Assembly: GCA_963762165.1 (NCBI GenBank) | Contig: CAVXJN010000001.1 | Coordinates: 570,900-634,899, forward strand | Source: an uncultured Gammaproteobacteria bacterium | GTDB taxonomy: Bacteria > Pseudomonadota > Gammaproteobacteria > JASBUN01 | DNA: 64,000 nucleotides | Direction: 5' to 3' | Shown here: positions 1,942 through 17,867 of the stretch, one piece after another | Layout of the letters: every line of letters begins with the position of its first letter | Position numbering within the stretch: position 1 is the stretch's first letter | The notes under the pieces: model-generated | Seen by the model: the letters and a program-made list of their open reading frames with translations, nothing else | What the model was told of the DNA's origin: nothing | The model's database searches: none | Position numbers and translations under genes: made by a program

Positions 1942-2769
1942 TCAATTGAGGCGCGAGGCGCGCACGGAAACATCAGCTGCGGGCGCCGGCCATGTGCGGC
2001 CGTCGTCCGTTATTAGCTCCCAAATATTTCGCCGCTCGCACCATATGCGGGCGAGCACGTCATTGATTTCACCAAAACAAGGTTGGCGGAAACCGTGATA
2101 CTCGATGAGTCCCCCCACAGGGCGGAACCGGATGCCAAAGCGCACCAGCAGGCGCATCAAGGCTGGTTCCATGACCGCGAACCAGTGTCTAAGGCCTTGA
2201 TCCGCACTCATACGAACAATGGCCAGAAATAAACCCAATGTCAAATGCGGAATAAGACGAGCCTCTTGGGGGCGCCTGGAATAGGCCACGGACCCGCCAC
2301 AACTCGCGCCGGTAATCGAGTCGCCCTCTCCTGCTCGACGCCTGAATTGCTTGGACACACCGAAGCGTGAAATCTCGCCAATGTGCTCCCTGGCTATCCG
2401 ATCTGGTCCCAGTCCCGCTGCTGTCAACGTTTTGGAACAGAGCCGCTCCATAGGTAGCAAGACGCCACGATCGCACCTATCCGGAAGCACGAGTCGTACA
2501 GTTGCGGCGAGGGCCCCCGTGGGACGATGGCGTACCAAGCTGTGGACCGAGCGGCGATCCTCGTCGTCCACTTCCCGTTGGTCTGGAAAACGCCGCGCGT
2601 CCTCGAAGGGATGTTCGATGCAATACGTCTGGTACCGCAGCCGGTACACCTCGTCTTTCAAGGCTTCCGTATTTGCCTCGCAGACTTCGAAGTAACGATG
2701 AAAAACCTCTATAAGGTCTTGCGACATATAATCTTTCCTGTAACGCGTCCGTATGAGACTTCGCCTCAC
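1942..2769 (-). CDS. PEP-CTERM/exosortase system-associated acyltransferase, second paralog
   Basis: 275-aa ORF colinear with 987..1835 (LRYQTYCIEH, EISRFGVSK, LTLGLFLAIVRMSA conserved in both). Confidence 0.55.
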   Translation of the reverse strand: MRRSLIRTRYRKDYMSQDLIEVFHRYFEVCEANTEALKDEVYRLRYQTYCIEHPFEDARRFPDQREVDDEDRRSVHSLVRHRPTGALAATVRLVLPDRCDRGVLLPMERLCSKTLTAAGLGPDRIAREHIGEISRFGVSKQFRRRAGEGDSITGASCGGSVAYSRRPQEARLIPHLTLGLFLAIVRMSADQGLRHWFAVMEPALMRLLVRFGIRFRPVGGLIEYHGFRQPCFGEINDVLARIWCERRNIWELITDDGRTWPAPAADVSVRASRLN

Positions 2770-3148
2770 CCCCCTCTATATCGACCGATTTCGAAAACCT
2801 TTGCGTGAACTGACCTACATTTCTAAGCAAATCGGGTAGTCACAGCGGCGAAAGGCACGTTATTCCGTGCAAAAGGCGCGAACGAGGATATTTGCGCAGC
2901 CTGCCGTCCGAGACTGGGTGCGCGGAAATCATCCATAGGGTGAGCTGAGCGCCGGCGCGTCACGGCGCGTTCGCCGAACTCAAATCAAGCGAAACCTCAG
3001 AACGCGGTTCGAAGAATCCGATACGGTGTGCGCGGGCTCCGCCATGCCACCGCCTCTGGTAAGACGGGTACCTGTGACCGTACCCCCAAAATCCGGTCCA
3101 TTTTCAAGGAGGGATTTCCCGATACGCTAGACTCAGGGAGGTCCCGAG

Positions 3149-3451
3149 ATGAAGCGCAAACGGTTTACCGAAGAACAGATCATTGGGATTTTGAAAGAGC
3201 ACGAGGCGGGTGCGAGTGTGGCCGATCTCGCCCGGCGCCATGGGGTAGTCGAGCAGTCGATCTACCGTTGGAAGAACAAGTACGGCGGCATGGACGTGTC
3301 GGAGGCGAAGCGGCTGCGCGAGTTGGAAGCGGAGAACGCAAAGCTCAAAAAGCTGCTGGCCGAGTCGCTCCTGGACAATGCCGCGCTGCGGGAGATCGCC
3401 GGAAAAAAATGGTACCGCCCGCGGCGAAGCGGCAGGCCGTTCAACACGTAG
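3149..3451 (+). CDS. IS3-family transposase OrfA (HTH)
   Basis: MKRKRFTEEQIIGILKE... is the typical IS3/IS407 OrfA N-terminus, with a leucine-zipper-like C-terminal part. Confidence 0.85.
   Translation: MKRKRFTEEQIIGILKEHEAGASVADLARRHGVVEQSIYRWKNKYGGMDVSEAKRLRELEAENAKLKKLLAESLLDNAALREIAGKKWYRPRRSGRPFNT
3404..3410 (+). promoter_or_regulatory. Programmed -1 ribosomal frameshift slippery heptamer (AAAAAAA) joining orfA to orfB
   Basis: GGA AAA AAA TGG in the orfA frame; a -1 shift reads ...GKKMVPPAAKRQAVQ..., which continues into the orfB frame. Confidence 0.6.
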
Positions 3452-3954
3452 TAGCGATGAAGCTACTGAGCGAGCGGCAGGCGTGCCAGTTAGTTCGGTT
3501 GTCCCGGTCGATGTGTCGGTATCAGTCCCGGCGAGCCGATGACGCCCGTTTGCGGGTGCGTCTGCGGGAACTGGCGCAGCAGTACCCGCGCTACGGCTAT
3601 CCCACGTTGCATGGTTTACTCAAGGCCGAGCAACGGGTGATCAACCCTACGAGGACGTATCGGGTCTATGCCGAAGAAGGGCTCCAGGTCCGTACCCGGC
3701 GCCGCAAGCGCTTGCAGCGGCCCCGAACGCCGATCGCACTGCCCAATCGCGTAAACGAACGCTGGTCCATGGACTTTGTGAGCGATCAACTGGCTGACGG
3801 CAGACGATTCCGGGTGTTGAACATCATCGGCGACTACTCGCGCGAGTGCGTTGGACAGCTCGTCGAAACCTCCATCTCCGGCATCCGGGTCGCGCGCTAT
3901 TTAAGCGAACTGTGCCAGCAGCGCGCCAGACCCGCGACCATCGTCACCGATAAC
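3407..3954 (+). CDS. IS3-family transposase OrfB, N-terminal portion (DDE integrase core, interrupted after ...TIVTDN)
   Basis: The orfB frame (part of ORF 3028..4089) reads ...RFRVLNIIGDYSREC...ATIVTDN and then diverges; the matching continuation GPEFTSKA... resumes at 5551. Confidence 0.7.
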
Positions 3955-5550
3955 GTGCTAACTGTGAAGTCAAGCACTGAGGTACGGGCGAGTGTAAGCG
4001 AGGCCGTGCTGGACGTCCTTGATTCGCTGCGTTCGCGGCTATCGAAAGCTGGCCTGAGCTTCCACGCTCAACAAGATCCCCTGGTCTGACCATAGTGAAC
4101 ACTATGGTCCGGTAGTGAACGGCCTCGACCGTGCTTAAAACAGTATGGGGTCCCGTGGAAGGCCCGAACATTATCTACGGGATCCTAAGAGGTCCCAACG
4201 GCCCTACAGATAGGGATCGATCCACGGGGCAAACTGGTTTCGAAGTAGCAGCGATAGGTGGTTTGGTGCTTGACCAGGCTGTAGGCGACCCGTGCCATCT
4301 TGGCCGCTACAGCGGTGAGTGCCTTGCGCTTGCGGTCGGCGTCGAGGGGATCGGGCTGCATGTAACGCTCGTACTTTTGCCGAAAACTGCTCTCGCGCAT
4401 GCGCACGGCGATCGTGGCGGCGAACCAGAACGCGAAGCGCAGGCGCGCATTGCCGCGCTTGGACAGCTTCTCCTGACCCCGGCACTGGCCCGATTGTGAC
4501 TTGGCCAAGTCCAGCCCGCAGTACTTGAGGAACTGTCGGTGATGGGAAAAGCGCCGCAGATCGCCGCCCTCGGCCAAGATGGTGAGTGCCAGCACAGGCC
4601 CTATACCGGGCAAAGAACGCAGTGACTCGTAATCTGGGCGGCCCTGCAGCAAACGATGCGCAGTCTCGGCCAACGCGTCGCGTTGTTCGATCAATTGCTG
4701 ATAACGCCGCAGCTGGAGTCGAAACGTCTCGATGGCCACATCGTCGACGGAGACCGGCAGACCGATGCTGGTGCACGCCAAATGTACAACTCTCGAATCC
4801 AGGTCCGTTTGTTGACCTTACGGCCAACCAAATCCCATGCGTCACGCTCGAACGCTTCGAATGCCAATGCATGGATCGATGCCGCCGTCGGGAAACGGAT
4901 CAGGAACCGTGCGAACCAAGCCGCCTGCGTGGTGTGGAAGTAGCGCTCGCTCTCCGGAAAATACAGCGGCAAATAATGCGTCAGAAGACTGTGTTGGAGC
5001 CGCGTGCGCGCAAGACTGATCTGATAGTGGGTTTTGGACAGCTCCTGCAAACCGTGGTGGCCGGCGATCAGTGGATCGACGTAACGTTGGGTGATCCCTT
5101 GCTTGAGCAGGGCAAGGACGACCCTGGCGTCCTTCGGGTCGTTCTTGTCCCGCGAATTGAACATCGCCTCACGGTAGCGGGCTGCAGCGACCGAAGAGAC
5201 TAGACACACGTCAAAGCCTTCCTTGAGCAAGCGATAAGCTAGCGTGCGGTGACAATCGCCGGTCGGCTCCAATGCCACGCGAACTGGCACAGGACACGCA
5301 CGCAACAGATCAACCAATCGCTGGTGGTCGTCCTGCGTGCTGCTCATCCTGAAGCGCTTTGGCTTGCTGTCAGGGGTCTCGATTAGAACGGCATGGGACC
5401 GCTTGGCGATATCGATCGCCACCCAGGTGACCGCCGGTGTAGTCTCGTTGCGGGTAGTCAGCATCGTGAATCTCCTGTGGTGTGTGAGAACCCTCAGGAT
5501 GATCCTTTCGATGGTGGCTGCCCAACCGGTCATGCTTCGATATGTACTAC
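3955..5550 (-). mobile_element. IS110-family insertion sequence nested inside IS3 orfB (boundaries approximate)
   Basis: Splits the IS3 orfB codons ...GAT AAC | GGC CCG...; carries an IS110-type (DEDD) transposase on the minus strand; no terminal inverted repeats, as expected for IS110. Confidence 0.65.
4185..5533 (-). CDS. IS110-family transposase, in two overlapping frames (frameshift near 4781-4800)
   Basis: N-terminal ORF 4691..5533 (VAIDIAKRSHAVLIE...DPKDARVVLALL) and C-terminal ORF 4185..4781 (SLPGIGPVLALTILAEGGDLRRF), matching IS110 family signatures. Confidence 0.65.
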
Positions 5551-5823
5551 GGCCCGGAGTTCACCAGCAAGGCACTGTTCTTCTGGGCGAAGGATCACGG
5601 CGTGCAGTTGCACTTCATCCAGCCTTGCAAACCGACACAGAACGCATTCGTCGAAAGCTTCAACGGCAAGTTCCGGGATCAATGTCTCAACCAACATTGG
5701 TTCCGTGATCGGTTCGACGCCCGCAACACGATTGAACAATGGAGAACCCACTACAACCACGTCAGGCCGCACCGTTCCTTGCAGAACTTGCCACCCGCGG
5801 TTTTCGCCGGACAGGCCGCCTGA
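5551..5823 (+). CDS. IS3-family transposase OrfB, C-terminal portion
   Basis: GPEFTSKALFFWAKDHGVQLHFIQPCKPTQNAFVESFNGKFRDQCLNQHWF...HYNHVRPHRSL is the conserved C-terminus of IS3/IS407 OrfB. Confidence 0.8.
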   Translation, partial: GPEFTSKALFFWAKDHGVQLHFIQPCKPTQNAFVESFNGKFRDQCLNQHWFRDRFDARNTIEQWRTHYNHVRPHRSLQNLPPAVFAGQAA

Positions 5824-6010
5824 TATGCTGAGATCCTCTCCAACGAACTGGACCGAATTCAGGGGTACGGTCACCTGAGGCATATGCAGACGCAAATACC
5901 TCGACCTCCCGGGTGGGCTGGCTTGAGCCAATCGCCAAATGCTCCTACCGGGGAACGACGGCGCTGTGGGCCAAGGCACGCGAGCACCCTCCGCCGACCC
6001 AATTCGCCGG

Positions 6011-7207
6011 TCAAAATGCGTAACGAAGCTCGGTGTAGATCCGGTCTTGATTGTCGTACTGGCCGAATAACCCTGTCGAAGGGCCGTCGAAAATGTCGAT
6101 ACCGCCGCCCAATCGCCAGTTCCTCGCGAAGCCCCAGGTCACCTTGGTTTGCAGCAACCAATCAGGCCGATTAAGACTATGAATAAGAAGCATTTCGGGC
6201 ACCACATTCGCACCGAACTCCTTGCTCCAGAGCAAACTGATCCCGCTTTCGACACTATCGGGGATCATGTCAGGATCATGATCCGGAAACCAGCGCTGGA
6301 AAAACTGGATATTCAGCCTCGTACCGTCACGCAGACTCCAATTGAGGCCGACTATGTAATCCAGGAAATCCTGCTCGACCAAACCGTCGGCGTCTGACGG
6401 TCGCGTAACCGCGAAGCGCTTGTCTTTGGTATACACGGCCTCCGCCTTTAGCACAAAACGGCGGAAATCCTTCGCCACCGTACCGCCAAACTGATGTATT
6501 CGGTGGTGAGTGGGCATGAACACGTAGGTAGGCCGCGCGCCCGGAATGATGGTGCGCTCGAAGGCCGGCGCTGATTCCATTGTTGTGTAATAAAACGCCG
6601 AAGAGTCCCAACCGTTATGAAGATATGTCCACCGTGCACCATAGGCCATGGTGTCGCTGCCCCTCGGCTTATCCTCGGAACGCACCTCCACAGGGATGCC
6701 GGGAGGCGACGCGAGCCGCGGGAAAAAATCCGCGCCAGGCTTCCCAATGCGGTCGTAGGTCATGTACGGGACCCAGACGAGTTCGAGATGGGCGTTATCG
6801 CCGAAATATTCCGCTCTTGCCGCCCACTGAGGAATGCGCAGAAACTCAAAATCCGGTAACACAAATTCCCGCAAATCTTTGGCGGATACCACGTCGGCAA
6901 AAAATAACCCTACCATTTCGCCCCAAACGATGTTTTGGCGGCCGAAACGGAAATCCCACCCCGCCTGTGACATATCCACATACGTCTCGCGAAGCATAAA
7001 GTTGAAATCCTGGTCCTCGCGGACCGCGTGGGGATAGAAATCGTTACCAACGTATACGGGATCAAATTGTAATCGCGCGCTCGCCTTCCAATCGAAACGC
7101 TTCGCGTGTCCGTCTGAAGCGATGTCAAAGGTGTTGAGAAATTTAGAAAAATGCGCCGGTTCCGCGTAGGTGTACGCGAACCCGTTTTGGAAAAATCCGC
7201 TCACCAC
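6011..7207 (-). CDS. DUF1302-family outer-membrane beta-barrel protein; lacks its own signal peptide, so possibly N-terminally fused to or truncated relative to the upstream ORF
   Basis: 398 aa with alternating beta-strand pattern and C-terminal ...TELRYAF; GTG-initiated ORF with no signal peptide; family assignment from memory. Confidence 0.5.
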   Translation of the reverse strand: MVSGFFQNGFAYTYAEPAHFSKFLNTFDIASDGHAKRFDWKASARLQFDPVYVGNDFYPHAVREDQDFNFMLRETYVDMSQAGWDFRFGRQNIVWGEMVGLFFADVVSAKDLREFVLPDFEFLRIPQWAARAEYFGDNAHLELVWVPYMTYDRIGKPGADFFPRLASPPGIPVEVRSEDKPRGSDTMAYGARWTYLHNGWDSSAFYYTTMESAPAFERTIIPGARPTYVFMPTHHRIHQFGGTVAKDFRRFVLKAEAVYTKDKRFAVTRPSDADGLVEQDFLDYIVGLNWSLRDGTRLNIQFFQRWFPDHDPDMIPDSVESGISLLWSKEFGANVVPEMLLIHSLNRPDWLLQTKVTWGFARNWRLGGGIDIFDGPSTGLFGQYDNQDRIYTELRYAF

Positions 7208-7988
7208 AGGCGTCGACGGCGAAACCTGGGCTGTTTACAGTACCGAACAGTTCACCTACTGAATCTGGCTCAGGGCTGCGAGTGATGGGAGAATCTTTTT
7301 CGGAGGCCCCGTCCGCTTTCTCGGCCGGCCCAGGCGCAAACAGCTCGTCCATAGTGGCGGGCTCATCAGCAGCCACGATAGCTTCCGCCGAGGCGGCTTG
7401 ATCCGCGTCACCCACGCCCGCCGCCGACTCCTGGGCCTCGGGTAATTGCGCGGGCTCATCAGTTGCGAACAGATCATTCATGCTTGCCGGATCGGCTGCA
7501 GCGACCCCGCGCTCTGCGGTTTCTCCGCCCGGCAGAGGCTCCGGCACGAAAAGTTCGTTTATGCTCGACGGCTGGGCTGCAACCTCCCCCCGGGGCGACG
7601 TGCCGCTTTCCGCGTCGTGCTCCGGACCCGGCCGACCAACCACACGTATCAAAGTTGGCTCAGGCCATTGGTTGGCAATTAGGTCCTGTTGCGCTCTTTC
7701 GGCCTGGGAACGCGTCTCATATGGCCCCAACCACACGCGAGTTGTATTCGGATTCCGTGCAGAATCGATGCGCGCATGATTCACCGGCAAGCCCGAAGCC
7801 TTGATGCGAGACACCACATGAGCAGCATTCTCCGGGTTCGCAAATACTCCCACGGTAACCTCATAGGCAGCATGAGCGAAACTTGAAAACAGCATCCAAG
7901 CCAGGAGAACACCGATCTGCACAGCGGCTTTATTAGGTGGTGGTTTCACTGTCTTTTTCTCCTGAATGCTATTCGGAAATTTGGCCAT
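7143..7988 (-). CDS. Signal-peptide protein with N-terminal SPOR (peptidoglycan-binding) domain and an acidic linker carrying repeated E/D-L-F motifs
   Basis: Signal peptide AVQIGVLLAWMLFSSFAHA; SPOR-like block YEVTVGVFANPENAAHVVSRIKASGLPV...RVWLGPYETRSQAERAQ; four repeats INELF / MNDLF / MDELF / VGELF. Confidence 0.55.
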   Translation of the reverse strand: MAKFPNSIQEKKTVKPPPNKAAVQIGVLLAWMLFSSFAHAAYEVTVGVFANPENAAHVVSRIKASGLPVNHARIDSARNPNTTRVWLGPYETRSQAERAQQDLIANQWPEPTLIRVVGRPGPEHDAESGTSPRGEVAAQPSSINELFVPEPLPGGETAERGVAAADPASMNDLFATDEPAQLPEAQESAAGVGDADQAASAEAIVAADEPATMDELFAPGPAEKADGASEKDSPITRSPEPDSVGELFGTVNSPGFAVDACGERIFPKRVRVHLRGTGAFF

Positions 7989-9105
7989 CGCTGAGACCGA
8001 CTAGCCGATCAGCCATTTCCATCACCCGTGGATCATGGGTTGAGAACACGAATGTAGTGTCTTCCTCACGGTTGATCTCTCTCATCAACCGCAAAATGCC
8101 TTCTCCCGTAGCGTGATCAAGATTTGCGGTCGGCTCGTCCGCCAATACCACCGAGGGGCGCGTGGCCAGCGCCCGAGCAATCGCGACCCGCTGGCGCTGT
8201 CCTCCACTGAGCTCGTTGGGACGGTGTCGTTTGAATTTGGACAATCCTACGACGTCCAGGTAGCGCTCCACTCGCTGGCCCCGCTTTTCTCGAGATAGAT
8301 CCTTATTTTGCAAAAGAGGATACTCGATGTTTTCCCACGCAGTAAGCACCGGAAGCAAATTGAAGGTCTGAAATACGAAACCCAATGTCTGGGCCCGAAG
8401 GTCCGCCAGTTGATCGGGACTGCGCGAACTCACATTCTGATTTTCGATGTAAATATCGCCACGAGTAGGCGTATCGATACAACCGATCAAATTGAGCAGC
8501 GTGGATTTTCCGCTGCCGCTTGGACCGGCCAAAGCCAAAAACTCGCCTCGCCGGACTTCGAGGCTTACGTCGCGCAACGCCGAGACCGTCTGTTTGCCAA
8601 GCGCGTATTCCTTCCACACTTTGTCGACCCTGACCAGTGCATTGTCCGTATCCGAAGCGGGGTGGTCGACTCCTGAGACCGCAAAGGTTAGCCGGTAATC
8701 GCCGAGCACAACCAAGTCACCGTCCCGCAGGGCGCTGCGATGACACTTGGCGCCGTTGACGATGAGCCCGTTGGTGCTGTCCAGATCTTCGATGAGGAAG
8801 GTACCGCCTTGCGTGCGGGTGATCTTGGCGTGCTTTCGGCTGACCGAGCAGTCTTCCAAGAACAGGTCGGAACTGGGCAGTCGTCCAATGTAGAAGCGAG
8901 CCCGGCGAACTTCGACTGTCCGCCGTCGCTCGGAGCCTCGTTCCACTTGCAGCGTCGCAATCCGGTCTTCCATTTGCACAAACTCGGTTCCCGCCCCTCC
9001 CGTCCGGGGGGCCAATCGCTGACGCGCACCCGCCCTCTTCCCAACCATGAGGGAACACCCTCGGCTGTGGTAAGCTCTGCCAAATCGGGTGAACACGAGC
9101 GACAC
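7969..9105 (-). CDS. ABC transporter ATP-binding protein with N-terminal FHA domain (LolD/MacB-like ATPase)
   Basis: FHA core IGR...VSRKHAKI...FLIEDLDSTNGLIVNG...LRDGDLVVLGD; Walker A GPSGSGKST, ABC signature LSGGQRQRVAIARAL, Walker B VVLADEPT; true start may be the internal Met at about 8976. Confidence 0.8.
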   Translation of the reverse strand: MSLVFTRFGRAYHSRGCSLMVGKRAGARQRLAPRTGGAGTEFVQMEDRIATLQVERGSERRRTVEVRRARFYIGRLPSSDLFLEDCSVSRKHAKITRTQGGTFLIEDLDSTNGLIVNGAKCHRSALRDGDLVVLGDYRLTFAVSGVDHPASDTDNALVRVDKVWKEYALGKQTVSALRDVSLEVRRGEFLALAGPSGSGKSTLLNLIGCIDTPTRGDIYIENQNVSSRSPDQLADLRAQTLGFVFQTFNLLPVLTAWENIEYPLLQNKDLSREKRGQRVERYLDVVGLSKFKRHRPNELSGGQRQRVAIARALATRPSVVLADEPTANLDHATGEGILRLMREINREEDTTFVFSTHDPRVMEMADRLVGLSDGQISE

Positions 9106-9934
9106 GTTATCTATGAGCTTGAATACTAGCAGACTTTTTACCGTTTACGGATCCGCGAGGCCCGTCAAGCGCGCAGCGGCATGGCATGTCGGCCTGCTGA
9201 CCATGATCTTCCTGGCTACATCCTTGTGGGACTCGCCGCGGGCATCGGCGACTCAGACGCCTAAGGCTCAAGAGATCCTGCAGCGTGCGGACCGCATCCG
9301 CTTTCCCGGCGATCCGTTTCAGGTCGATGTTACCGTTACCAACGAAGAACAGGGTCGCAACGAGGAAGTGCGCAAATATCGCATACTGTCCAAAGGGCAC
9401 GACCGCACCCTCGTTCAGACGCTAGCCCCGGCAATCGACCGCGGCCAGATACTGCTGATGCGTGATCACGACCTATGGGCGTTTCTTCCCAACATCTCGC
9501 AACCGATACGGCTACCACTTTCGCAACGTTTAACCGGACAAGTAGCCAATGGAGACCTAGCAAGAGCCAATTTTGTCGGTGACTACTCGCCGAAGTTGCT
9601 CGGCCAAGAAAAACTCCGCGGCGACGATTACTATGTGCTCGAACTGAACGCGGTCGACCGATGGGTCACTTACCATCAGGTCAAATATTGGGTTCATACC
9701 AAGTCCTTTCGCCCCTACAAGGCTGAATACTACGCCCTGTCCGGACGCCTGCTAAAAACCGCGCGTTACCTGAATTTTCAACGACTCGGTGGCGACGAAC
9801 GCCCCAGCCGCCTTGTCATTGACGACGCTCTTCGCAACGGTCGTCGTTCAATCATGGACTACGCGCACATGCGACTTCGCAACCTTCCCGACAAGTACTT
9901 CAATAAGGATTACTTGAAAAAGCTGAGCCGCTAA
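9089..9934 (+). CDS. LolA-like outer-membrane lipoprotein-sorting family protein (periplasmic)
   Basis: 281 aa with a signal-peptide-like N-terminus (KRAAAWHVGLLTMIFLATSLW...ASA); family recalled as a frequent partner of FtsX-type ABC permeases; start codon uncertain. Confidence 0.5.
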   Translation: MNTSDTLSMSLNTSRLFTVYGSARPVKRAAAWHVGLLTMIFLATSLWDSPRASATQTPKAQEILQRADRIRFPGDPFQVDVTVTNEEQGRNEEVRKYRILSKGHDRTLVQTLAPAIDRGQILLMRDHDLWAFLPNISQPIRLPLSQRLTGQVANGDLARANFVGDYSPKLLGQEKLRGDDYYVLELNAVDRWVTYHQVKYWVHTKSFRPYKAEYYALSGRLLKTARYLNFQRLGGDERPSRLVIDDALRNGRRSIMDYAHMRLRNLPDKYFNKDYLKKLSR

Positions 9935-9975
9935 ACGGATATCCAACGGGACAAACTCGACTCGAGCGGTTTGCC

Positions 9976-11187
9976 TCATATATTTTGGCGCAGCGCATTG
10001 ACGATATGCAATTTCGAGGCTCTTCGTGCCGGAAATAACGACGCCAAGACTGCCGCGACTGCACCAACAACACTCGCCAATGCTAGCACTGACGGGACAA
10101 TGCGAATCGATGCGACATAGCCAGTATTGGAGCCCGGCGGAGGAGGCATCTGTATTCCGATTTGCGAAAGCACAAGCGAGAGCAATGCACCAATACCGAC
10201 GCCGAGTGCCGCGCCGGTCAAGCCCAGTATTATGTTCTCAACCAGCACCAGTCGAAAGATTTGGCCACGCCGGTTGCCGAGCGCCAGCAAAGTCCCGAAT
10301 TCGCCAGTTCGCTCGTAGATTGTCATGTTGACGGTGCTTGCGACACCGAGCAATACCATGATCAGGATAATCGCCTGAAGCGTAGCGAACTGACGCCGGT
10401 AAAGTGCGACCGTCTTATTGTAGAAATCTGCCAACTCGTACCAAGGCTTGATTTCATATCGCCCGCTGTCCAAGCGGTCGGTCAACGCCTGGACGACACG
10501 ATCCGTATTTTCCGTCCGGTCCAGGACCGCAATGATCGAATGCACTGCATTCGAAAACAACAACTCTTTGGCCGTGGACAACGGGACTCGAACCGCGCGA
10601 TCGTCGTAATCCTTGGAAAAACTTCGAAATACGCCTATCACATTGAATTCTAATGTATTTAACGCACCTTCTGGCGTGCTTACCGTGACTGTCACGTAGC
10701 TGCCTGGCTTGAGTTGCAGCGCTCCGGCGACACCCTCACCAATCAATGCGCCATATTGATCCGATCCTGTTAACTGTCTGCCCGCAACGATTGTCAATGC
10801 GGAGCCCAGCCGGGCTTCCGCATCCGGCTCGATCCCCTCCCCGCGGATTGGAATATCCCCTTTTCCATTGCTCGCCATTCCGGAAAAATAAGAGCGCGCC
10901 AGCACTTCTTTCACATGCGGCAGCGCCGTCAACCGCTCCACTAGCTTCGCCGGATCGCTGATCGAATACTTCACCGGATCACGACGACCGAATTTTGAGT
11001 ACCCTGCGTGGAACACTTGCAGGTGTCCCAAGCGAGAATGAATCGTGGCTTCGCGCAACTGCACGAACGAGTCTTCGATGAAGCCACCGCTGACGACGAT
11101 CGCGGCTACGCCTGATACGATCGCCGCCAATGTAATTGCCGTGCGAAGACGATGCCGAAACGTATTACGAAATGCGAGCTTCAACAT
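9976..11187 (-). CDS. ABC transporter permease, FtsX/MacB/LolE-like
   Basis: 403 aa; N-terminal TM, large periplasmic domain, three C-terminal TMs (FtsX fold); paralog of the next gene. Confidence 0.8.
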   Translation of the reverse strand: MLKLAFRNTFRHRLRTAITLAAIVSGVAAIVVSGGFIEDSFVQLREATIHSRLGHLQVFHAGYSKFGRRDPVKYSISDPAKLVERLTALPHVKEVLARSYFSGMASNGKGDIPIRGEGIEPDAEARLGSALTIVAGRQLTGSDQYGALIGEGVAGALQLKPGSYVTVTVSTPEGALNTLEFNVIGVFRSFSKDYDDRAVRVPLSTAKELLFSNAVHSIIAVLDRTENTDRVVQALTDRLDSGRYEIKPWYELADFYNKTVALYRRQFATLQAIILIMVLLGVASTVNMTIYERTGEFGTLLALGNRRGQIFRLVLVENIILGLTGAALGVGIGALLSLVLSQIGIQMPPPPGSNTGYVASIRIVPSVLALASVVGAVAAVLASLFPARRASKLHIVNALRQNI

Positions 11188-11211
11188 TTCTGAGCACCAG
11201 CGATGTTGAAC

Positions 11212-12441
11212 TTAGATAGAATGACGCAGCGCATCCACAATCTCTAAACGAGAAGCCTTCCACGCCGGATAGACTCCAGCGATACTCGTAGTCACCCATG
11301 CGAGCAAAAATGCATTAGCCACGATCCCCCACGTGAGAAGGATTTGACCAGTGTATCCTTTGTCCATTCCTGGCGGCGGCGGCATGGGGATACCGATTAT
11401 TGAAATCAGCCACGCGAGCACAGCGCCGATGCCAAGTCCTAAGATCGCTCCGATCAACCCCAAGAGTGAGCTTTCCCAAAGAAAGAGACGAAGAATCGTT
11501 TTTCTCTTTAAGCCGATCGCCATCAAAGTACCGATTTCTCCCGTACGCTCCAGTACATTCATCACCAGAACATTGGAAATACTCAACACCACGATAAGAG
11601 CGATGATGAGCTCAACGGCCCCCATTTGCTCAGACAGTAACTTCACCGTTTTTCTGTAGAAATCCGCACGGGCGTACCACGGAATGAATTTCACATTACG
11701 ACGCTCGGAATGGAACCGTGCTCGTAACGCTCGCAGCATATCACCAGTACTTTCCGTATCGGTTAGCAAAATCAGCCACGAATGAGATCCCGAAGTTCGC
11801 AACAGCGTGCGGGCTTGGCTGATAGGCAACCGCAGAGCGGCATCATCGTATGCTTTGCTTACACTCACGAACAGGCCGACCACGCGGAGCTCGATCGCGT
11901 TTATTCCTCCACTTTCCGAATTAGCCAAAAGCACCACCGAATCGCCGGGTTTAGCGTTTAGGTTTCTAGCCAGTCCGCGTCCAAGAACCACTTCACGTTC
12001 ATCGGGGGCCCCCGCGTGGGATAGGCCTCTACCTGACACTATCCTTAATGCACGACTGAGCTTCACTTCTTTTCCGGGCTCGACCCCCTCGCCGAGAAAT
12101 GAAACGGTCGTATCCCCCCGACTAATCATGCCGCTTAGGGAAAGGCGCTCGGCGATTAGGTCGACGCCGGGCATTTTTTCTATCTGTTTCTCCAACGGAG
12201 AATTTTCCGGCAACAGATAGGCAAAGGGATCCGCGACGCCCGCTTCCTCGTAGCCTGGCTGAACCACTTGAATGTGGCCGAATTGTGAATGAATCGTCGC
12301 TTCACGCATTGCCCAAAAAATCCACGCAACGAAGCCCTCGGCCAGCATCAGGGCCACTACCGCCGCTACGACCGTAGCCAGCGCTATTGACGCACGTCGG
12401 CGATTACGCAAAAGATTCCGGACTGGCAATGGTATTTGCAC
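11212..12441 (-). CDS. ABC transporter permease, FtsX/MacB/LolE-like (second copy)
   Basis: 409 aa with the same architecture; IPMPPPPG motif shared with 9976..11187. Confidence 0.8.
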   Translation of the reverse strand: MQIPLPVRNLLRNRRRASIALATVVAAVVALMLAEGFVAWIFWAMREATIHSQFGHIQVVQPGYEEAGVADPFAYLLPENSPLEKQIEKMPGVDLIAERLSLSGMISRGDTTVSFLGEGVEPGKEVKLSRALRIVSGRGLSHAGAPDEREVVLGRGLARNLNAKPGDSVVLLANSESGGINAIELRVVGLFVSVSKAYDDAALRLPISQARTLLRTSGSHSWLILLTDTESTGDMLRALRARFHSERRNVKFIPWYARADFYRKTVKLLSEQMGAVELIIALIVVLSISNVLVMNVLERTGEIGTLMAIGLKRKTILRLFLWESSLLGLIGAILGLGIGAVLAWLISIIGIPMPPPPGMDKGYTGQILLTWGIVANAFLLAWVTTSIAGVYPAWKASRLEIVDALRHSI

Positions 12442-13021
12442 GATACGCTGATGCCTAACGACGCTCTGTTAGCAGGCGCCAATCTTACCACGGCACGATT
12501 CCGCGCCGCCGAAAACCACGGTCTCGCAATCGACCAACGATGGAACACCACACATGGCAAAAATGACTATGCACAATCTTGCGGAGAAATCGCGATCATG
12601 GCGTCCGCTCGCCATTCTAAAGCGAATGCCCATGCCACTACTCGACTACCCCAGCCAATACTGTCAGCACACAGACGCCATTTCATCCAACGAGAAAAAT
12701 GCGGCGTAGGTCACAGATGCCTTCTAGACAAAGGCCGCTTTTTCAATTATATAACGGTATCTGACACACCGCGCGACAGGTTGAATTTCCCATCCCGGGA
12801 CGGGTTCACGACCCGTCTACCGTCGTCACGCTGAATAGCAACGATCGGCGCGCCTCGAGTTAATCGCCGATACCGGCCATAAAAAACAACGCTCGACAGA
12901 CAATAATTATGAAGCTTTGTGCTTTGCCTGCCCTTCTCCCCTCTCGATCGAGTTGCCCTAGCACGACCCGCACAAAGGATCGCGACAAGAGTATCGACCG
13001 AAACGATGTGCTTAAATAGAC

Positions 13022-14122
13022 ATGAATTCTTCAGGTAGCCAAAAGGTGGTCACCAATTACGGACTCATGACTGCGTTTTTACAACGCATGATTGCTGCAG
13101 GCATCCGCGCCCCATCTGGAGACAATTGCCAGCCGTGGTGGTTTGAGGCGAGCGCAGGGAATACACTTAGCATCCACGTCGATCTACCGCAGGCCGAAAG
13201 CTTTTTCGATTTCAAGCACCGCGGGTCCCTGCTATCAGTCGGAGCAGTAATCGAGAACATGCGCCTCCAGGCAGCCATGGAGGGTTTTGACTGCACGTTA
13301 TCGTACCCCGGGAACACCGGGGAAACCGGTCCCGCAGCTCAGGTAGCATTCCGACCCACATCCGCCAAAGGGTCTCAGGCTACGCTGCAAGCCGCAATGT
13401 GGCAACGTACCGTCAACCGACGGCCGTTCCTACCAGCACGGATCATGCGCAGTAAACTTCAGGCGTTGACTGAGAACCCTGTCGCAGGCGTGCGCGTCAG
13501 ATTTTTCCAGCGTCGCAGTGAAATCAAACAATGGGCGCGGCTGATCTATGCAGCGGATCGAATACGATATTCTCACCCAGTTATTCATGAGCAGGTATTT
13601 TCGAAAATTCTTTTGTCCAAGAATGAAGCACTAACCAAACGTGTCGGACTGGAAATCGATCGTCTCGGCGCAGGACCCATCGCCAAACCACTCATGCGCT
13701 TGATACGTCCTTGGGACCGAATGCATCGGCTCCGATATATTGCCGCGGACCGATTACTCGCCCGTCAAGCACAGATGCTGGCCCTGGCCAGCGGTGCGCT
13801 GTGCGTCGTTTCGATCGAGACCAATGACAACGACGCTTGGATTCGCGCGGGCGAACAAGTCGAACGCTTATGGATCAAAGCACAGTCATTAGGACTATGT
13901 GTACATCCTATAACCGTGGCTCTTTTCCTTGACATGCGCTACCGCGAAACCGGCACAGACGGATTTCGGGCCGATCACCAAAAGTTCTTGGAAGAGATCC
14001 GCGCGGGCATCGACCGCTTGATCCCAGACGGCCAATGCGCCATGTTGTTTCGGCTTGGAGTTGGCCCAATGATGGCACATCCGGCCGTTCGCAAATCCCC
14101 GGAAACGTTTCTTCGGCAATAA
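13022..14122 (+). CDS. Nitroreductase-superfamily flavoprotein, two-lobed/tandem type (366 aa)
   Basis: N-terminal nitroreductase motif RAPSGDNCQPWWFE; length consistent with tandem-lobed nitroreductase/SagB-like dehydrogenases. Confidence 0.55.
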   Translation: MNSSGSQKVVTNYGLMTAFLQRMIAAGIRAPSGDNCQPWWFEASAGNTLSIHVDLPQAESFFDFKHRGSLLSVGAVIENMRLQAAMEGFDCTLSYPGNTGETGPAAQVAFRPTSAKGSQATLQAAMWQRTVNRRPFLPARIMRSKLQALTENPVAGVRVRFFQRRSEIKQWARLIYAADRIRYSHPVIHEQVFSKILLSKNEALTKRVGLEIDRLGAGPIAKPLMRLIRPWDRMHRLRYIAADRLLARQAQMLALASGALCVVSIETNDNDAWIRAGEQVERLWIKAQSLGLCVHPITVALFLDMRYRETGTDGFRADHQKFLEEIRAGIDRLIPDGQCAMLFRLGVGPMMAHPAVRKSPETFLRQ

Positions 14123-14188
14123 AACGCAGCGTCTGCGCATAATAGCTGTCATATTCAAACGAAACGCGTGCCCCACGGAGAGTGTAAT

Positions 14189-15220
14189 ATGGACAAAGAA
14201 CTGAAATTCGACGACTTAGCCCTGATTGCCGCGGGCCATACCGCGTTCCAACTATTGTGGTCCGGTCTGCAACTCGGGTTGTTTGATTTCCTGTCCGCGA
14301 ATCCCGGTGCATCACGTGACCAGATCATGAAACACGCGGACCTCCAGGAGCAACCTGCCCGAATTCTCTTGATCGGTCTAACGACACTGAAGCTGATAAA
14401 AAAGGAAGGGGATGGTTATCGGAACGCCGACGTGGTAGCGCAAGTTCTGGTATCCAATAGCCCAGCGTACATGGGCGACGTGTTGGGATGGCAATACCAT
14501 ATTGTCTATCCGGGCGAGATGGACCTTCTTCGCGCGTTGCAGGAAAATACGAATGTGGGGCTGGGGCGATTCACCGGCACGGAAAACAACCTCTATGATC
14601 GCCTCTCGCACACCCCCGAACTGGAGAAGATTTTCCATGACGCGATGAGTTCGTTATCGAAGTCGGCCAATGTGCTTCTGGCCGAAGAGGTCCCCCTCAC
14701 GAGCATCTCTCATCTGGTCGACGCAGGCGGAGGCGATGGTACGAACGCTATCACCCTCGCTAAAGCCAACCCGCATCTCAAGGTCACCGTATTTGACTCG
14801 CCCACGGTCTGCGCCTTGGCTGAGCAGAACATACGCGAGGCAGGCATGGGGGACCGTGTAGACACCTTTCACGGCAACCTTTTTAACACCGACCTCCCCA
14901 CTGGTATCGACGCCATCTTGCTGGCGCACATGATGACCATCTGGTCTCCGGAGCACGACACGACTGTGCTGAAAAAGGCTTATGACGCGCTTCCCGCCGG
15001 AGGTCGGGTGATCGTGTTCAATATGATGGGGAACGACGATGAAGACGGGCCAATCACGGCAGCGTTGGGATCGCCCTATTTCCTGTCGATCGCCACCGGC
15101 GAAGGCATGCTATACACCTGGAAAGATTATGAATCATTTATGGACCGCGCCGGCTTTAAAAAGATCGAACGCATTTCACTGCCAAGAGATCACGGCGTGC
15201 TAATCGGCATCAAGCAATGA
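14189..15220 (+). CDS. Class I SAM-dependent O-methyltransferase (COMT-like, dimerisation domain plus Methyltransf_2)
   Basis: SAM motif LVDAGGGDGTNAITLAKANPHLKVTVFD; ATG at 14189 preceded by GGAGAG; the ORF tool's 14168 start is GTG. Confidence 0.7.
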   Translation: MDKELKFDDLALIAAGHTAFQLLWSGLQLGLFDFLSANPGASRDQIMKHADLQEQPARILLIGLTTLKLIKKEGDGYRNADVVAQVLVSNSPAYMGDVLGWQYHIVYPGEMDLLRALQENTNVGLGRFTGTENNLYDRLSHTPELEKIFHDAMSSLSKSANVLLAEEVPLTSISHLVDAGGGDGTNAITLAKANPHLKVTVFDSPTVCALAEQNIREAGMGDRVDTFHGNLFNTDLPTGIDAILLAHMMTIWSPEHDTTVLKKAYDALPAGGRVIVFNMMGNDDEDGPITAALGSPYFLSIATGEGMLYTWKDYESFMDRAGFKKIERISLPRDHGVLIGIKQ

Positions 15221-16152
15221 CGCAACCGGAAGCCGATAAGAAGCCGCGCAATCCACAAGGTCAAGTCGACGCGCAATTCGACTATCACGCTGCTTTCAGT
15301 CGCAACCTTGGGCTGGTGCAACCCGAAGAGCAGGACACGCTTCGCCGCAGCAAGATCGCGATCGCGGGCCTGGGAGGCGTTGGAGGGGTACATGTGCACA
15401 CCCTTGCACGGCTGGGCATCGGACGATTCCATCTCGCCGATTTCGACTCGTTCGAGTTGCCAAACTTCAATCGCCAAGCGGGCGCAACTGTGTCAAATCT
15501 GGGCAAGAGCAAATGCAGCGTGATGGCTGCTACTTTGACGGACATAAATCCAACGTCTGAAATTACGAGGTTCGAAGACGGGATCCATGCCGGCAACGTA
15601 GATCGGTTTCTTGAAGATGTCGATGTCGTTGTGGACGGCCTCGATTTTTTCGCCGTTGAGGCCCGCGATTTGCTCTATACCCGCGCTCGCGAGGCTGGCC
15701 TTCCCGTCGTCGGCGCAGGCCCCATCGGTTTCAGCGCGATTCTGCTTGTTTTCACACCCGATGGAATGGGCTGGCACGAATATTTCGCGATGGACCTCGC
15801 CAAAAATACGGTGGACAAGTACGTGCTGTTCGGCTTGGGTAATGCGCCGAAGGCTACCCATCTATCCTACATGGATAGGCGCTATGTCAGCCTGGATAAG
15901 AAAATCGGCCCTTCCTGCGCCGCCGCCGTGCAATTATGCGGCGGCTGGATCGGGGCCGAAGTGGTTAAACTGTTGTTGGGCAGGGGGCCTGTATTGGCTG
16001 CGCCCTATTACCACCAATTCGACGCATACAAATGCAAATATGTGCGCGGAAAGTTGAGATGGGGGAATAAAGGACCGTTACAGAGGCTGAAGTTCCTGAT
16101 CTTCAAAAAGATCTATCTCTCGAAATCGCAGAACGCCCGTCAACCGATCTAG
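15217..16152 (+). CDS. ThiF/MoeB/HesA-family E1-like adenylyltransferase (no C-terminal CxxC or rhodanese)
   Basis: Rossmann motif IAIAGLGGVGGVHVHTLARLGIGRFHLADFD...NFNRQ; start overlaps the stop of the methyltransferase (ATGA), suggesting translational coupling. Confidence 0.7.
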   Translation: MTQPEADKKPRNPQGQVDAQFDYHAAFSRNLGLVQPEEQDTLRRSKIAIAGLGGVGGVHVHTLARLGIGRFHLADFDSFELPNFNRQAGATVSNLGKSKCSVMAATLTDINPTSEITRFEDGIHAGNVDRFLEDVDVVVDGLDFFAVEARDLLYTRAREAGLPVVGAGPIGFSAILLVFTPDGMGWHEYFAMDLAKNTVDKYVLFGLGNAPKATHLSYMDRRYVSLDKKIGPSCAAAVQLCGGWIGAEVVKLLLGRGPVLAAPYYHQFDAYKCKYVRGKLRWGNKGPLQRLKFLIFKKIYLSKSQNARQPI

Positions 16153-16283: not shown

Positions 16284-17300
16284 TTAGCTACGCGAGGCTT
16301 TCTTCCGACGGCGGGCGGCGCCCGCAAAGCCGGACACAGCAAGCCCGGTTCCCAGCAGGGCCAGTACGCCAGGCTCCGGAACTGCAGTCACATTGACGCT
16401 GGTCAGTGCCGCCAAGGTTAACGTCCAGTTCCCCGCCGTCAGTCCGCTCACATTGAGGCCGAACGTGGAGGCGCCGGTACCAAGGCTGTGGCTCTGACTA
16501 CTGTTGTCGGGGCCGACACCCAGGGTAAGGTTCAAGTCTTCGCTATCTGCGGTCTCGGTACACGCAAGGCCGCCAGAGGCGTCACAATTGTTTGCTGCGG
16601 TACCTTGCGGCGACCAGCTCACTTCCCCGCTGCCACCGGATAGCTGCTGCAGACCGAACGACGCTGTCATGTTAGACTGGGCCAAACCGAGTCCCGTCAA
16701 CTGGTTCACCAGCGCCTGCATTTCCGGATTGGCGCTGAAGTCGAGAATCAAGGTCGCGGGTGAGACCAACCCATTAGCGAGGGTAAACGACAGCGTGAAG
16801 GTAGTGTTGGATTGAATGTTCGTCGATGCCTGCCCTTGGCCGGTGTTCGCAACCTCCGACTCCGCGACCTGCTTGGTCGAAGTCGGTGTTCCCGTCACCA
16901 ACTCGGAAGTGGAGATTTCCGCGTTGGAGTTCGAGTAGGTGCCGGAACCGGGCCCAAACAGGCTGTAGTTGCTGTCCGCACGAGTGATCGAGCTGCTCGG
17001 CGCATTCGCGGCAGGCACGGTCAACACCGGCGATGTAGCGCTACACGGGGTGCCAAAGCTACCACAACCCGCAGCATTCGCATCGGTAGCGCCATTCAGC
17101 GTCGCCGAATCTTCGACGTTGAAGGTGTACCGGGGGCTAACCCCAGTGATCGGGTCATTGTTGGCATCGAACAGTTGGATGCTCAGGCTATTGATATCGA
17201 GAGACGAACCCGCGTATACGTTCGCGCTGGCTTCGCCTACTGCTCCCATCCCGATCGCAGCCGAGACAGCAGCTACCAAAGTTGCTTTTTTCATGTTCAT
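16284..17300 (-). CDS. PEP-CTERM sorting-domain secreted protein (exosortase substrate)
   Basis: N-terminal signal peptide; Ser/Thr/Gly/Asn-rich body; C-terminus VPEPGVLALLGTGLAVSGFAGAARRRKKASRS (VPEP, TM helix, basic tail); RBS AAGGAG upstream. Confidence 0.9.
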   Translation of the reverse strand: MNMKKATLVAAVSAAIGMGAVGEASANVYAGSSLDINSLSIQLFDANNDPITGVSPRYTFNVEDSATLNGATDANAAGCGSFGTPCSATSPVLTVPAANAPSSSITRADSNYSLFGPGSGTYSNSNAEISTSELVTGTPTSTKQVAESEVANTGQGQASTNIQSNTTFTLSFTLANGLVSPATLILDFSANPEMQALVNQLTGLGLAQSNMTASFGLQQLSGGSGEVSWSPQGTAANNCDASGGLACTETADSEDLNLTLGVGPDNSSQSHSLGTGASTFGLNVSGLTAGNWTLTLAALTSVNVTAVPEPGVLALLGTGLAVSGFAGAARRRKKASRS

Positions 17301-17410: not shown

Positions 17411-17428
17411 ATGCAAACAGCGGGCCAA
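17411..17428 (-). promoter_or_regulatory. Sigma-54 (RpoN) -24/-12 promoter for the PEP-CTERM gene
   Basis: Minus-strand TTGGCCCGCTGTTTGCAT matches TGGCACG-N4-TTGCW at GG, GC and spacing; about 110 nt upstream of the start codon; the sigma-54 activator PrsR is encoded in this window. Confidence 0.7.
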
Positions 17429-17462: not shown

Positions 17463-17867
17463 TCGCTCACCCGTGCCGGTCGGTGTCCGCGCGGCGCGGC
17501 CTGTAAAATGCGCTGACAGCGTGGCGCAGCGGCAGCGCGGCACTTTACGGAACGCGGCCGCGCCGCCGCCGCTAGTGGCTCGAAGCGGCGCTAGCGGGCT
17601 GTACCGTCGAGTCCTTTTACAGTGCCTACACGCCGCGATATCGGCCCAGGCCCCGCGCGCGACAGCGCATCGGGACTCGGCCACGTTCGCCGCTACCGAT
17701 TGGAGGCGGTTCGCGCCCCGGATTTGTCGAACTTATTGAAGAATTTAACGGAACCACGCCGCGTTGGGAGTATCTTTCTCTGCGAAAGTGCAGCAAAATC
17801 GAACCATTGCGCATCGGACGCCGCCCACACGAGCCCACGACACGGTTCCCTCGCACCTAGACAACCC

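Follow-up and report, generated by a model that had tools for sequence, protein, structure and literature searches.

Introduction

Outer-membrane beta-barrels of the DUF1302 family are known to pair with LolA-superfamily proteins of the DUF1329 type and with an inner-membrane transporter (PMC6394551; bioRxiv 10.1101/2020.07.04.188060), and the DUF1302-DUF1329 pairing has been modeled by AlphaFold-Multimer with an ipTM of 0.84 (PMC13499233). A comparable set of parts occurs in Borrelia, in which BBJ23-BBJ29 join a type VII ATP-binding cassette (ABC) transporter to a LolA-like protein and an outer-membrane barrel and have been proposed, by structure prediction, to export a non-polar ligand (PMC13078400). 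Here we describe a locus at positions 6011-12441 of a 64,000-nt stretch of DNA from an uncultured gammaproteobacterium (contig CAVXJN010000001.1, positions 570,900 to 634,899; hereafter, the window). The locus is a real and conserved module, in which a Lol-like type VII ABC transporter is combined with a LolA-like carrier and a DUF1302 barrel. On balance, we favor its interpretation as a dedicated Lol-like trans-envelope export route for lipidic or lipid-anchored cargo, tied to genes for N-acyl amino acid synthases (NAS), for ThiF- and Acg-type enzymes, and for the XrtA/PEP-CTERM system.

The passage of PEP-CTERM proteins and their associated products beyond the inner membrane has been an open question since the system was defined in 2006, and a Lol-like pump with a carrier and a barrel, placed between the NAS and PEP-CTERM gene sets, is a testable candidate for this transport step. 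According to papers that cite them, Craig, Cherry and Brady reportedly linked NAS genes to the PEP-CTERM system in 2011. In the searchable literature, we found no paper that combines exosortase or PEP-CTERM with DUF1302, LolA, or FtsX. Among the hosts of the module are relatives of Accumulibacter, Thiobacillus, Nitrotoga, and Nitrosomonas, organisms of importance to wastewater flocs and to sulfur and nitrogen cycling.

Materials and methods

Domains were called with Pfam gathering scores and NCBIfam curated cut-offs. Relatives were retrieved with an alignment of barrel homologues from a collection of species-representative genomes, in which at least 543 stretches matched. The loci analyzed were the best 80 of these and one metagenome contig (L001), giving 81 loci, a sample in which the closest relatives of the query are over-represented. 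The presence and order of the components were determined by tblastn with the window proteins, and neighboring families were identified by unbiased clustering of open reading frames (ORFs) with BLAST and by NCBIfam, using fixed thresholds and 10-kb flanks. Neighbor frequencies were calculated only from loci in which each flank extends for at least 8 kb (36 loci, referred to below as full-flank loci). Protein kinases were sought with a regular expression for the Hanks catalytic loop and the DFG motif in the window and within 10 kb of the FHA-bearing loci.

Results

Transporter and carrier

An earlier note on this DNA had listed six ORFs in 6011-12441, all of which were found at exactly those coordinates. 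Its family assignments (MacB/LolE permeases, LolA-like protein, FHA, ABC, SPOR, and DUF1302) were borne out by Pfam, every domain call exceeding the gathering score. Permease A (11212..12441, minus strand) is a LolC/E-like subunit of a type VII ABC transporter with a MacB-type periplasmic domain and a C-terminal FtsX membrane domain (FtsX, 77 bits; MacB_PCD, 51 bits). Permease B (9976..11187, minus strand; MacB_PCD, 73.7 bits; FtsX, 63.9 bits) is its paralogue and presumed heterodimer partner, and the full-length identity of 41% between the two is as expected for a heterodimer of paralogues. The presence of MacB_PCD and FtsX above threshold in both permeases, together with a nucleotide-binding domain (NBD) of the MJ0796/LolD/MacB type, places the transporter in the type VII ABC (MacB/FtsX) superfamily. 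Among solved structures, LolE, LolF, and LolC are the closest relatives, followed by YtrF and MacB, and the best match of permease A is LolE (7mdx_B, E=2.6e-19). The scores against the Lol models themselves are low: permeases A and B reach 111.4 and 95.4 bits with NCBIfam lolCE (TIGR02212), for which the cut-off is 362.45, and 56-79 bits with the LolE and LolC exception models, for which the cut-offs are 439-540. The FtsX models yield merely 16-22 bits.

The ABC ATPase (7969..8973, minus strand) is of the LolD/MacB/MJ0796 type and carries an N-terminal FHA domain (approximately 8701-8892; 63 bits, E=3.5e-17, cut-off 20.7) ahead of ABC_tran (approximately 8125-8577; 122 bits). The closest solved relatives of its NBD are MJ0796, 5XU1, LolD, and MacB. 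As with the permeases, the equivalog cut-offs are missed, the ATPase scoring 221.2 bits against 307.75 for LolD (TIGR02211) and 209 against 360 for NF008639, while the second-best NCBIfam match is DevA (211.5 bits against 295.8).

The third component, which is transcribed divergently from the ATPase, is a soluble periplasmic protein of the LolA superfamily (9113..9934, plus strand). It matches PF17131 (LolA_like / TP_0789-like) over the full model with 158.9 bits (E=1.4e-46, cut-off 30), and its type I signal peptide (…SPRASA/TQ) is without a lipobox Cys. PF17131 is the only Pfam family found at E<=0.01, and no NCBIfam model matches. The carrier is an orthologue of PDB entry 3BUU (E=3.7e-85), which was deposited from Nitrosomonas europaea under the name 'LolA superfamily protein NE2245' and for the function of which we found nothing published in the searchable literature. 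In some sources, homologues of the module are annotated as 'ABC-type lipoprotein export system ATPase' and 'outer membrane lipoprotein-sorting protein'.

Barrel gene and its frameshift

The remaining two ORFs had been read as a separate SPOR protein and a DUF1302 barrel. The closest homologue, P0001 (574 amino acids), is a fusion of SPOR and DUF1302, and other fused homologues include P0007 and P0111. In tblastn, residues 3-175 of P0001 align with window frame -3 at 7919-7419 and residues 174-574 with frame -1 at 7216-6014 (66% identity), and the frame shifts between the two parts at about 7217-7237. Because the fusion aligns across both frames, the sequence indicates that the two ORFs are one gene split by a frameshift; it follows that the locus holds five genes and not six, with SPOR as the N-terminal domain of the barrel. 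Furthermore, the ORF 6011-7207 is without a signal peptide of its own, one being supplied by the part of the gene in the SPOR frame. The whole gene (6011..7988, minus strand, in two frames) thus encodes a signal peptide, a SPOR domain (7680-7874), a disordered linker, and a DUF1302 outer-membrane beta-barrel (6011-7216). An exact look-up of the 398-amino-acid barrel ORF gave no record.

The split is most likely an indel error of the assembly and not the mark of a pseudogene, because the housekeeping genes tgt (51222-52330) and malQ (56302-57800) are frameshifted too. The N-terminus of Tgt lies in another frame, and that of MalQ is spread over three frames, with several shifts within 300 nt. 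Other split genes in the window are prsK (28272-30390), a second prsT-like gene (21129-23561, in three pieces), and a truncated MGT-like glycosyltransferase gene (17622-19171). Decay of the island, to which insertion sequence (IS) elements and the split PrsK, PrsT2, and glycosyltransferase genes had seemed to point, was rejected once Tgt and MalQ had been found frameshifted, and frameshifts across the window are a warning against pseudogene calls there. An independent Logan contig (L082) matches window 7241-10833 at 100% identity and ends a few bases short of the frameshift, an end that may mark a break in coverage or a variant at this site.

The starts of two further genes could be corrected. 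Homologues of the ATPase are approximately 327 amino acids long and begin at the Met at 8973, giving a gene of 7969-8973 (334 amino acids) within an ORF that can be extended to 9105, and an independent gene call sets the start of the LolA-like gene at 9113 (273 amino acids). Since both starts had been over-extended in the ORF list, the two genes are divergent without overlap and are separated by a 139-bp spacer. A scan of 5900-13100 for sigma-70 promoters and terminators was uninformative on operon structure, its counts being at or below those expected from shuffled sequence.

Barrel fold and arm motif

The SPOR domain scores 35.9 bits (PF05036, cut-off 21; ORF 7143-7988), and the barrel matches DUF1302 (PF06980) with 47 bits (E=2.6e-12, cut-off 23.2) over profile positions 98-446 of 541 only. 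By so low a score, the window barrel is to be placed in a divergent DUF1302 subfamily, for which, as for the carrier, NCBIfam has no dedicated model. An AlphaFold2 model of P0001, built with 40 homologues (mean pLDDT 76.6), contains a confident SPOR domain with the beta-alpha-beta-beta-alpha-beta fold (pLDDT of approximately 80-94), a disordered linker, and a barrel of approximately 18-20 strands, the blocks of which mostly reach a pLDDT of 80-96 with dips to approximately 48-55 in the loops. When this model was compared with the PDB by Foldseek, only generic porins were recovered (E of about 1e-12) and no specific relative, in keeping with a recent statement that the DUF1302 family is still without a solved structure (PMC13499233).

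The barrel subfamily comprises 281 representatives (50%-identity clusters) at E<=1e-30 among 1.84 billion entries. A motif, S-[IMV]-D-[DE]-L-F-G-x-P, was found in the N-terminal arm of 109 of 116 barrel homologues, at 1.12 copies per arm against 0.011 expected from shuffling, an enrichment of approximately 100-fold. In the window, the linker (7245..7565, minus strand) holds four copies of the form S/T-x-x-[DE]-L-F, the coordinates of which were verified by translation: SINELF (7548-7565), SMNDLF (7467-7484), TMDELF (7338-7355), and SVGELF (7245-7262), all on the minus strand. The arm is disordered in the P0001 model and forms tiny helices at the motifs. The conserved SxD[DE]LF arm motif is a ready handle for interaction experiments.

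Conservation of the module

Barrel relatives are encoded in at least 543 stretches of the genome collection, mostly from Thiobacillaceae, Nitrotoga, Sulfuricella, and relatives of Accumulibacter. The loci derive from Thiobacillaceae, Nitrotoga, Sulfuricella, Sulfuriferula, Methyloversatilis, Methylocaldum, Accumulibacter, Propionivibrio, Azonexus, Chromatiaceae, Competibacteraceae, and others. In 67 of 68 loci, the carrier and ATPase genes are arranged head-to-head, and in 65 of 68 the barrel gene comes immediately after that of the ATPase; with an order so well kept, the suggestion of a coherent envelope-export module in the earlier note can be upheld. The ATPase is present in 97% and the carrier in 94% of the 36 full-flank loci, and the permease pair, in tandem, in 64% (23/36).

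The neighborhood of this core recurs as well. NAS genes of some kind occur within 10 kb in 58% of the full-flank loci (21/36), and the same fraction (21/36) has a curated XrtA/PEP-CTERM marker within this distance; the markers found in other loci include TIGR03007, TIGR03018, TIGR03027, and TIGR03016. ThiF is found in 53% and an Acg-type protein in 42% of these loci. At least one of NAS, ThiF/Acg, and XrtA/PEP-CTERM is present in 31 of 36 loci, and a NAS gene or an XrtA marker in 28 of 36. In the complete genome of Thiobacillus sedimenti, genes for a FeeM-like protein, ThiF, and a nitroreductase-like protein precede the barrel, FHA-ATPase, carrier, and two permeases, and are followed beyond the module by genes for a glycosyltransferase, an acetyltransferase, a methyltransferase, a PEP-CTERM protein, and two PrsT proteins. 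The same order is seen in metagenome contig L001; like the window and T. sedimenti, this contig has a gene for a PEP-CTERM protein next to the module. The link to a PEP-CTERM island that had been supposed from the window is thus substantiated by curated families of the XrtA system, both in the window and beside the module in other loci.

A further example can be drawn from the literature. The gene table of the psc1 exopolysaccharide (EPS) cluster of Rubrivivax gelatinosus lists, without comment, two exported unknowns, an ABC permease, an ABC ATPase, and two ThiF genes, located between the PrsT/PEP-CTERM genes and the XrtA eps genes (PMC3684757). As far as the descriptions in the table allow the likening, these genes are probably the same module.

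Nine loci of Accumulibacter and its relatives lack the permease pair within 10 kb (L027, L038, L042, L050, L057, L058, L076, L079, and L081). In these, an HDOD-type histidine kinase and a PAS-GGDEF-EAL-like response regulator, of which just the kinase family was checked, adjoin the NAS gene and the carrier, which hints at control linked to cyclic di-GMP in the Accumulibacter lineage.

FHA and SPOR as lineage-specific additions

The FHA domain of the ATPase had been taken to imply gating by Ser/Thr-kinase signaling. The residues G30, R31, S45, and H48 (GR and SxxH) are kept in 95-99% of 120 homologues and the Asn of the 'NG' turn in just 62%, and the domain evolves faster than the NBD (36% against 72% identity). 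Its closest structures are GarA, OdhI, Rv1747, and FhaA, with the Rv1747 FHA structure (6CAH) at E=4.5e-11. Judged by these residues, the domain looks functional where present and of the phosphothreonine-binding type. The supposed kinase gating found no local support: a search for the Hanks-kinase motif gave no match in the window (64 kb) and none within 10 kb of the FHA-bearing loci, the sole match among the loci belonging to one without FHA (L078), and no conserved phospho-acceptor Thr was found in the FHA-NBD linker, although a kinase encoded elsewhere in the genome might serve. Moreover, FHA occurs on the ATPase in only 13 of 72 loci, all from close relatives of the window (Thiobacillaceae, Nitrotoga, Sulfuricella, and Hydrogenophilales), and in most loci that are FHA-less there is no room for it ahead of the NBD. 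SPOR is restricted too, being found on the barrel in 8 of 81 loci and in 6 of 120 database homologues. Both domains are lineage-specific additions and not defining parts of the module.

Neighboring genes in the window

Downstream of the barrel and on the same strand lie two tandem NAS genes (987-1835 and 1942-2769, minus strand), which match TIGR03694, 'PEP-CTERM/exosortase system-associated acyltransferase', with 270 and 266 bits against a cut-off of 112. The enzymes that they encode may synthesize the cargo or its lipid moiety. The intervening 3028..5979 holds remnants of IS3 and IS110 transposases (NCBIfam transpos_IS3 and transpos_IS110) and an orphan ORF. In the closest related contig, L001, the NAS genes follow directly after the barrel with a gap of 207 bp, and the IS remnants are not part of the module.

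On the other side of the module, NCBIfam and Pfam identify an Acg-type nitroreductase-like protein (13022-14122), an O-methyltransferase (14168-15220), and a ThiF-type E1-like adenylyltransferase (15217-16152), all on the plus strand, and this divergent operon likely encodes tailoring enzymes. In the Rv1355c-family and PRK14851 models, one half corresponds to ThiF and the other to Acg, and a FeeM-like protein common in related loci (e.g., L008, 13270-14094) matches the N-terminus of the 989-amino-acid PRK14852, of which ThiF and Acg match later parts. This implies that natural three-domain FeeM-like/ThiF/Acg fusions exist, and such fusion-type evidence suggests that the three enzymes act in one pathway.

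Beyond the operon, an EDSAP-1 family PEP-CTERM protein (16284..17300, minus strand; NF041538, 253 bits against a cut-off of 100) is a candidate exosortase substrate. It is followed by genes for an MGT-like glycosyltransferase, a sulfotransferase, two PrsT TPR proteins, PrsR, PrsK, and a TIGR03013 priming glycosyltransferase, and the curated scores of PrsT (781 bits), PrsR (751), the split PrsK (586), and TIGR03013 (562) are all above cut-off. The xrtA gene itself is absent from the window. From approximately 34.5 kb onward, the window contains housekeeping genes.

A sigma-54-type -24/-12 box with one mismatch, TGGCCCGCTGTTTGCA, was noted at 17412-17427 (minus strand), approximately 110 nt upstream of the EDSAP-1 gene, and fits control by the sigma-54 activator PrsR (26923-28275). 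The search for TGGCAC-N5-TTGCW with up to two mismatches gave 34 matches in the window against 34.6 expected, and none at the promoters of the module. The sulfotransferase-family gene (19123-20100, plus strand; PF13469, E=8e-26) lies between the glycosyltransferase and PrsT genes, and its product might modify an exopolysaccharide or a lipid product.

Discussion

From the composition of this locus, we infer a direction of transport, an order of hand-off, a role for the arm motif, and a class of cargo. The two paralogous four-helix permeases would form a heterodimer like that of LolC and LolE, powered by a dimer of the LolD-type ATPase, in the manner of a type VII 'mechanotransmission' ABC transporter. 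ATP-driven motion of the periplasmic domains would then pull an amphiphile from the outer leaflet of the inner membrane, and the soluble LolA-superfamily protein would ferry it over the periplasm to the DUF1302 barrel, which would accept it for delivery to the outer membrane or the cell surface. It is possible that the disordered periplasmic arm of the barrel, with its S-x-D-[DE]-L-F motif, acts as a docking site for the carrier or the pump. In the lineage of the window, the SPOR domain may add binding to peptidoglycan to the arm, and the FHA domain may add a regulatory input to the ATPase.

Two kinds of cargo suggest themselves. The first is an N-acyl amino acid, which ThiF, Acg, and the methyltransferase may modify, and the second is the set of PEP-CTERM proteins processed by exosortase. 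The lipid is favored because the synthase genes are co-directional with the barrel and directly after it in the closest loci.

Several observations weigh against an export route of this kind. Type VII ABC systems load from the periplasmic side and do not flip their substrates; thus, an N-acyl amino acid made in the cytoplasm would first have to be moved by a flippase, of which there is no sign. There are also type VII systems that have no transport function at all, FtsEX being one. NAS, ThiF/Acg, and XrtA markers are each missing from approximately 40-60% of the loci within 10 kb, and 5 of 36 have none of them. In several lineages, including Accumulibacter, the permease pair is not found within 10 kb of the core. 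The window's own copy of the barrel gene carries a frameshift, albeit one that probably stems from the assembly. Finally, a non-saturating Tn5 screen for loss of aggregation in Rubrivivax gelatinosus yielded 25 insertions in the EPS cluster and 0 in the probable equivalents of the module (PMC3684757).

The most credible of the alternatives, though an unlikely one, takes the second kind of cargo: the module would be a second, specialized Lol pathway that carries exosortase-processed and possibly lipid-transferred PEP-CTERM proteins to the outer membrane or surface. PrsT, PrsR, PrsK, the TIGR03013 glycosyltransferase, and the EDSAP-1 PEP-CTERM protein are encoded beside the module in the window, and the XrtA-system markers of 21 of 36 loci and the PEP-CTERM gene adjoining the module in the window, L001, and T. 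sedimenti point the same way. The nearest relatives of the permeases, moreover, are the lipoprotein extractors LolE, LolF, and LolC, and the substrates of archaeosortase end up C-terminally lipid-anchored. Nevertheless, xrtA is not in the window, 42% of the loci have no XrtA marker within 10 kb, and no lipoprotein cargo has been demonstrated for the PF17131 family. For exosortase, we know of no attachment target established for its substrates.

It is also conceivable, but again unlikely and ranked behind protein cargo, that lipid and protein belong to one pathway. The synthases and the ThiF, Acg, and methyltransferase enzymes would make a lipid that exosortase uses as the acceptor when it removes the PEP-CTERM anchor, and the C-terminally lipidated proteins would leave through the LolCE-like pump, the LolA-like carrier, and a DUF1302 barrel, the SxD[DE]LF arm of which docks the carrier. 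If this were true, hundreds of environmental Proteobacteria would possess, for lipidated PEP-CTERM proteins, a second Lol pathway specific to its cargo.

An efflux function, either as a MacAB-like pump for self-protection against antimicrobial peptides or bacteriocins or for untargeted expulsion of the cell's own surfactant-like N-acyl amino acids, appears improbable. The NBD and the permeases are in the same superfamily as MacB, BceAB, and YbbAP, antibacterial surfactant activity has been ascribed to N-acyl amino acids (PMC7293339), and YbbAP-TesA is described as extracting hydrophobic compounds from the inner membrane (PMC12646458). Against this, no HlyD/MacA adaptor or TolC family is found among the ORFs of 6011-12441 or the recurrent neighbors of 82 loci, although a TolC encoded at a distance might be used, and a conserved soluble carrier with a dedicated barrel implies targeted hand-off in the periplasm. 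If the expelled molecule were the NAS product, this alternative would merge with the export route that we favor.

The opposite direction, namely uptake or handling of exogenous hydrophobic compounds, is quite improbable: no type VII ABC transporter (MacB, LolCDE, FtsEX) is known to us as an importer. The idea comes from the DUF1302/DUF1329 pairs: Pseudomonas putida mutants in these genes are less fit on Tween 20 and butyl stearate (bioRxiv 10.1101/2020.07.04.188060), and the DUF1329 protein AmeB is required for growth of Castellaniella defragrans on monoterpenes (PMC6394551). Here, by contrast, no catabolic genes recur beside the module, its conserved neighbors being biosynthetic, EPS, or PEP-CTERM genes, and a divergent DUF1302 subfamily is joined to a different LolA-superfamily partner.

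Lower still stands a mechanotransducer that transports nothing, like FtsEX-EnvC, perhaps at the septum, which we regard as very improbable. The permeases do belong to the FtsX family, SPOR domains target septal peptidoglycan, the SPOR domain has weak matches to FtsN and RlpA, and FHA suggests signaling. However, neither SPOR (8/81 loci) nor FHA (13/72) defines the module, the FtsX models score just 16-22 bits, and what is conserved beside the transporter is a lipid-binding carrier of the LolA fold with a barrel, instead of a coiled-coil hydrolase activator. That the locus is the organism's housekeeping LolCDE-LolA lipoprotein-sorting system is scarcely credible, given that, even with LolD, LolC, and LolE as the best named matches and some homologues annotated as lipoprotein export or sorting proteins, the equivalog cut-offs are missed widely (221 against 308; 95 and 111 against 362), the carrier is PF17131 and not LolA, LolB is missing, and the genes form an accessory island with IS elements that is confined to certain lineages.

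The export of a lipidic or lipid-anchored cargo therefore remains the interpretation that we prefer. Should the module prove to be merely the product-specific exporter of a small biosynthetic cluster, this would still be a useful annotation for hundreds of genomes.

Comparison with known systems

The combination of genes had been called undescribed. This stands insofar as we found no functional description of the module in the searchable literature, and it needs amending in that the module is common, its carrier has a solved orthologue in 3BUU, and a probable equivalent has been tabulated (PMC3684757). The locus also falls outside LolCDE, MacAB-TolC, and DevBCA.

With LolCDE-LolA(-LolB), the module shares two paralogous four-helix FtsX/MacB permeases, an ATPase of the LolD type, and a soluble protein with the LolA fold. 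It differs in that every Lol equivalog cut-off is missed, so that it cannot be counted as a LolCDE system, in that the carrier is PF17131 and not of the LolA family, and in that the lipoprotein LolB is replaced, as the candidate acceptor, by a large DUF1302 barrel. In addition, it is accessory, is linked to NAS and PEP-CTERM genes, and has an FHA domain on its ATPase in the lineage of the window. MacAB-TolC is set apart by the adaptor and TolC families, which are missing from the locus and from its recurrent neighbors.

DevBCA-HgdD, the exporter of heterocyst glycolipids, and YbbAP-TesA are likewise type VII ABC systems, and their substrates are lipids or hydrophobic compounds instead of proteins. 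The module cannot be assigned to DevBCA, since it has no DevB adaptor and scores 211.5 bits against 295.8 for DevA and 15.6 against 290 for DevC. Unlike these systems, it is without a membrane fusion protein adaptor, a TolC-type duct, or a TesA-like hydrolase and has a carrier and a barrel in their place. The likeness to Rv1747 of Mycobacterium tuberculosis that had been proposed holds for the FHA domain itself, which is fused N-terminally to an ABC NBD in both, and not for the rest of the architecture. Rv1747 has two FHA domains, a phosphorylated linker, a fused ABC-2/ABCG-type membrane domain, and the kinase partner PknF, whereas the window protein has one FHA domain, no membrane domain, and a LolD-type NBD, and so lies outside that family.

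The Borrelia BBJ23-BBJ29 system is similar in uniting a MacB-like ABC permease, an ATPase, a LolA-like protein, and a barrel, with TPR proteins nearby, as PrsT is here. Its barrel, in contrast, belongs to the Omp85 family, its permease is homodimeric, and it is plasmid-borne in spirochaetes, without a NAS/PEP-CTERM link, FHA, or SPOR.

Finally, the clusters of DUF1302, DUF1329, BNR/Ycf48-like, and resistance-nodulation-division (RND; HAE3) proteins, such as Pseudomonas PP_0765-0766 with PP_2018-2019 and Castellaniella AmeABCD, share with the module a DUF1302 barrel, a LolA-superfamily protein, and an inner-membrane transporter, and are implicated in the traffic of hydrophobic molecules. DUF1329, BNR/Ycf48-like, and HAE3 RND proteins are absent from the ORFs of the locus and from its recurrent neighbors. 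In their place, the module uses a type VII ABC transporter instead of an RND pump and PF17131 instead of DUF1329, and does so without BNR. Its barrel is divergent and bears the SxD[DE]LF arm, with or without SPOR, and its neighbors are biosynthetic or EPS genes and not LuxR or catabolic genes. Through the module, DUF1302 barrels gain a second genomic context, as do PF17131 carriers, of which 3BUU had a structure without a function, and the comparison suggests that a pair of barrel and LolA-fold protein can be driven by a type VII ABC transporter as well as by an RND pump.

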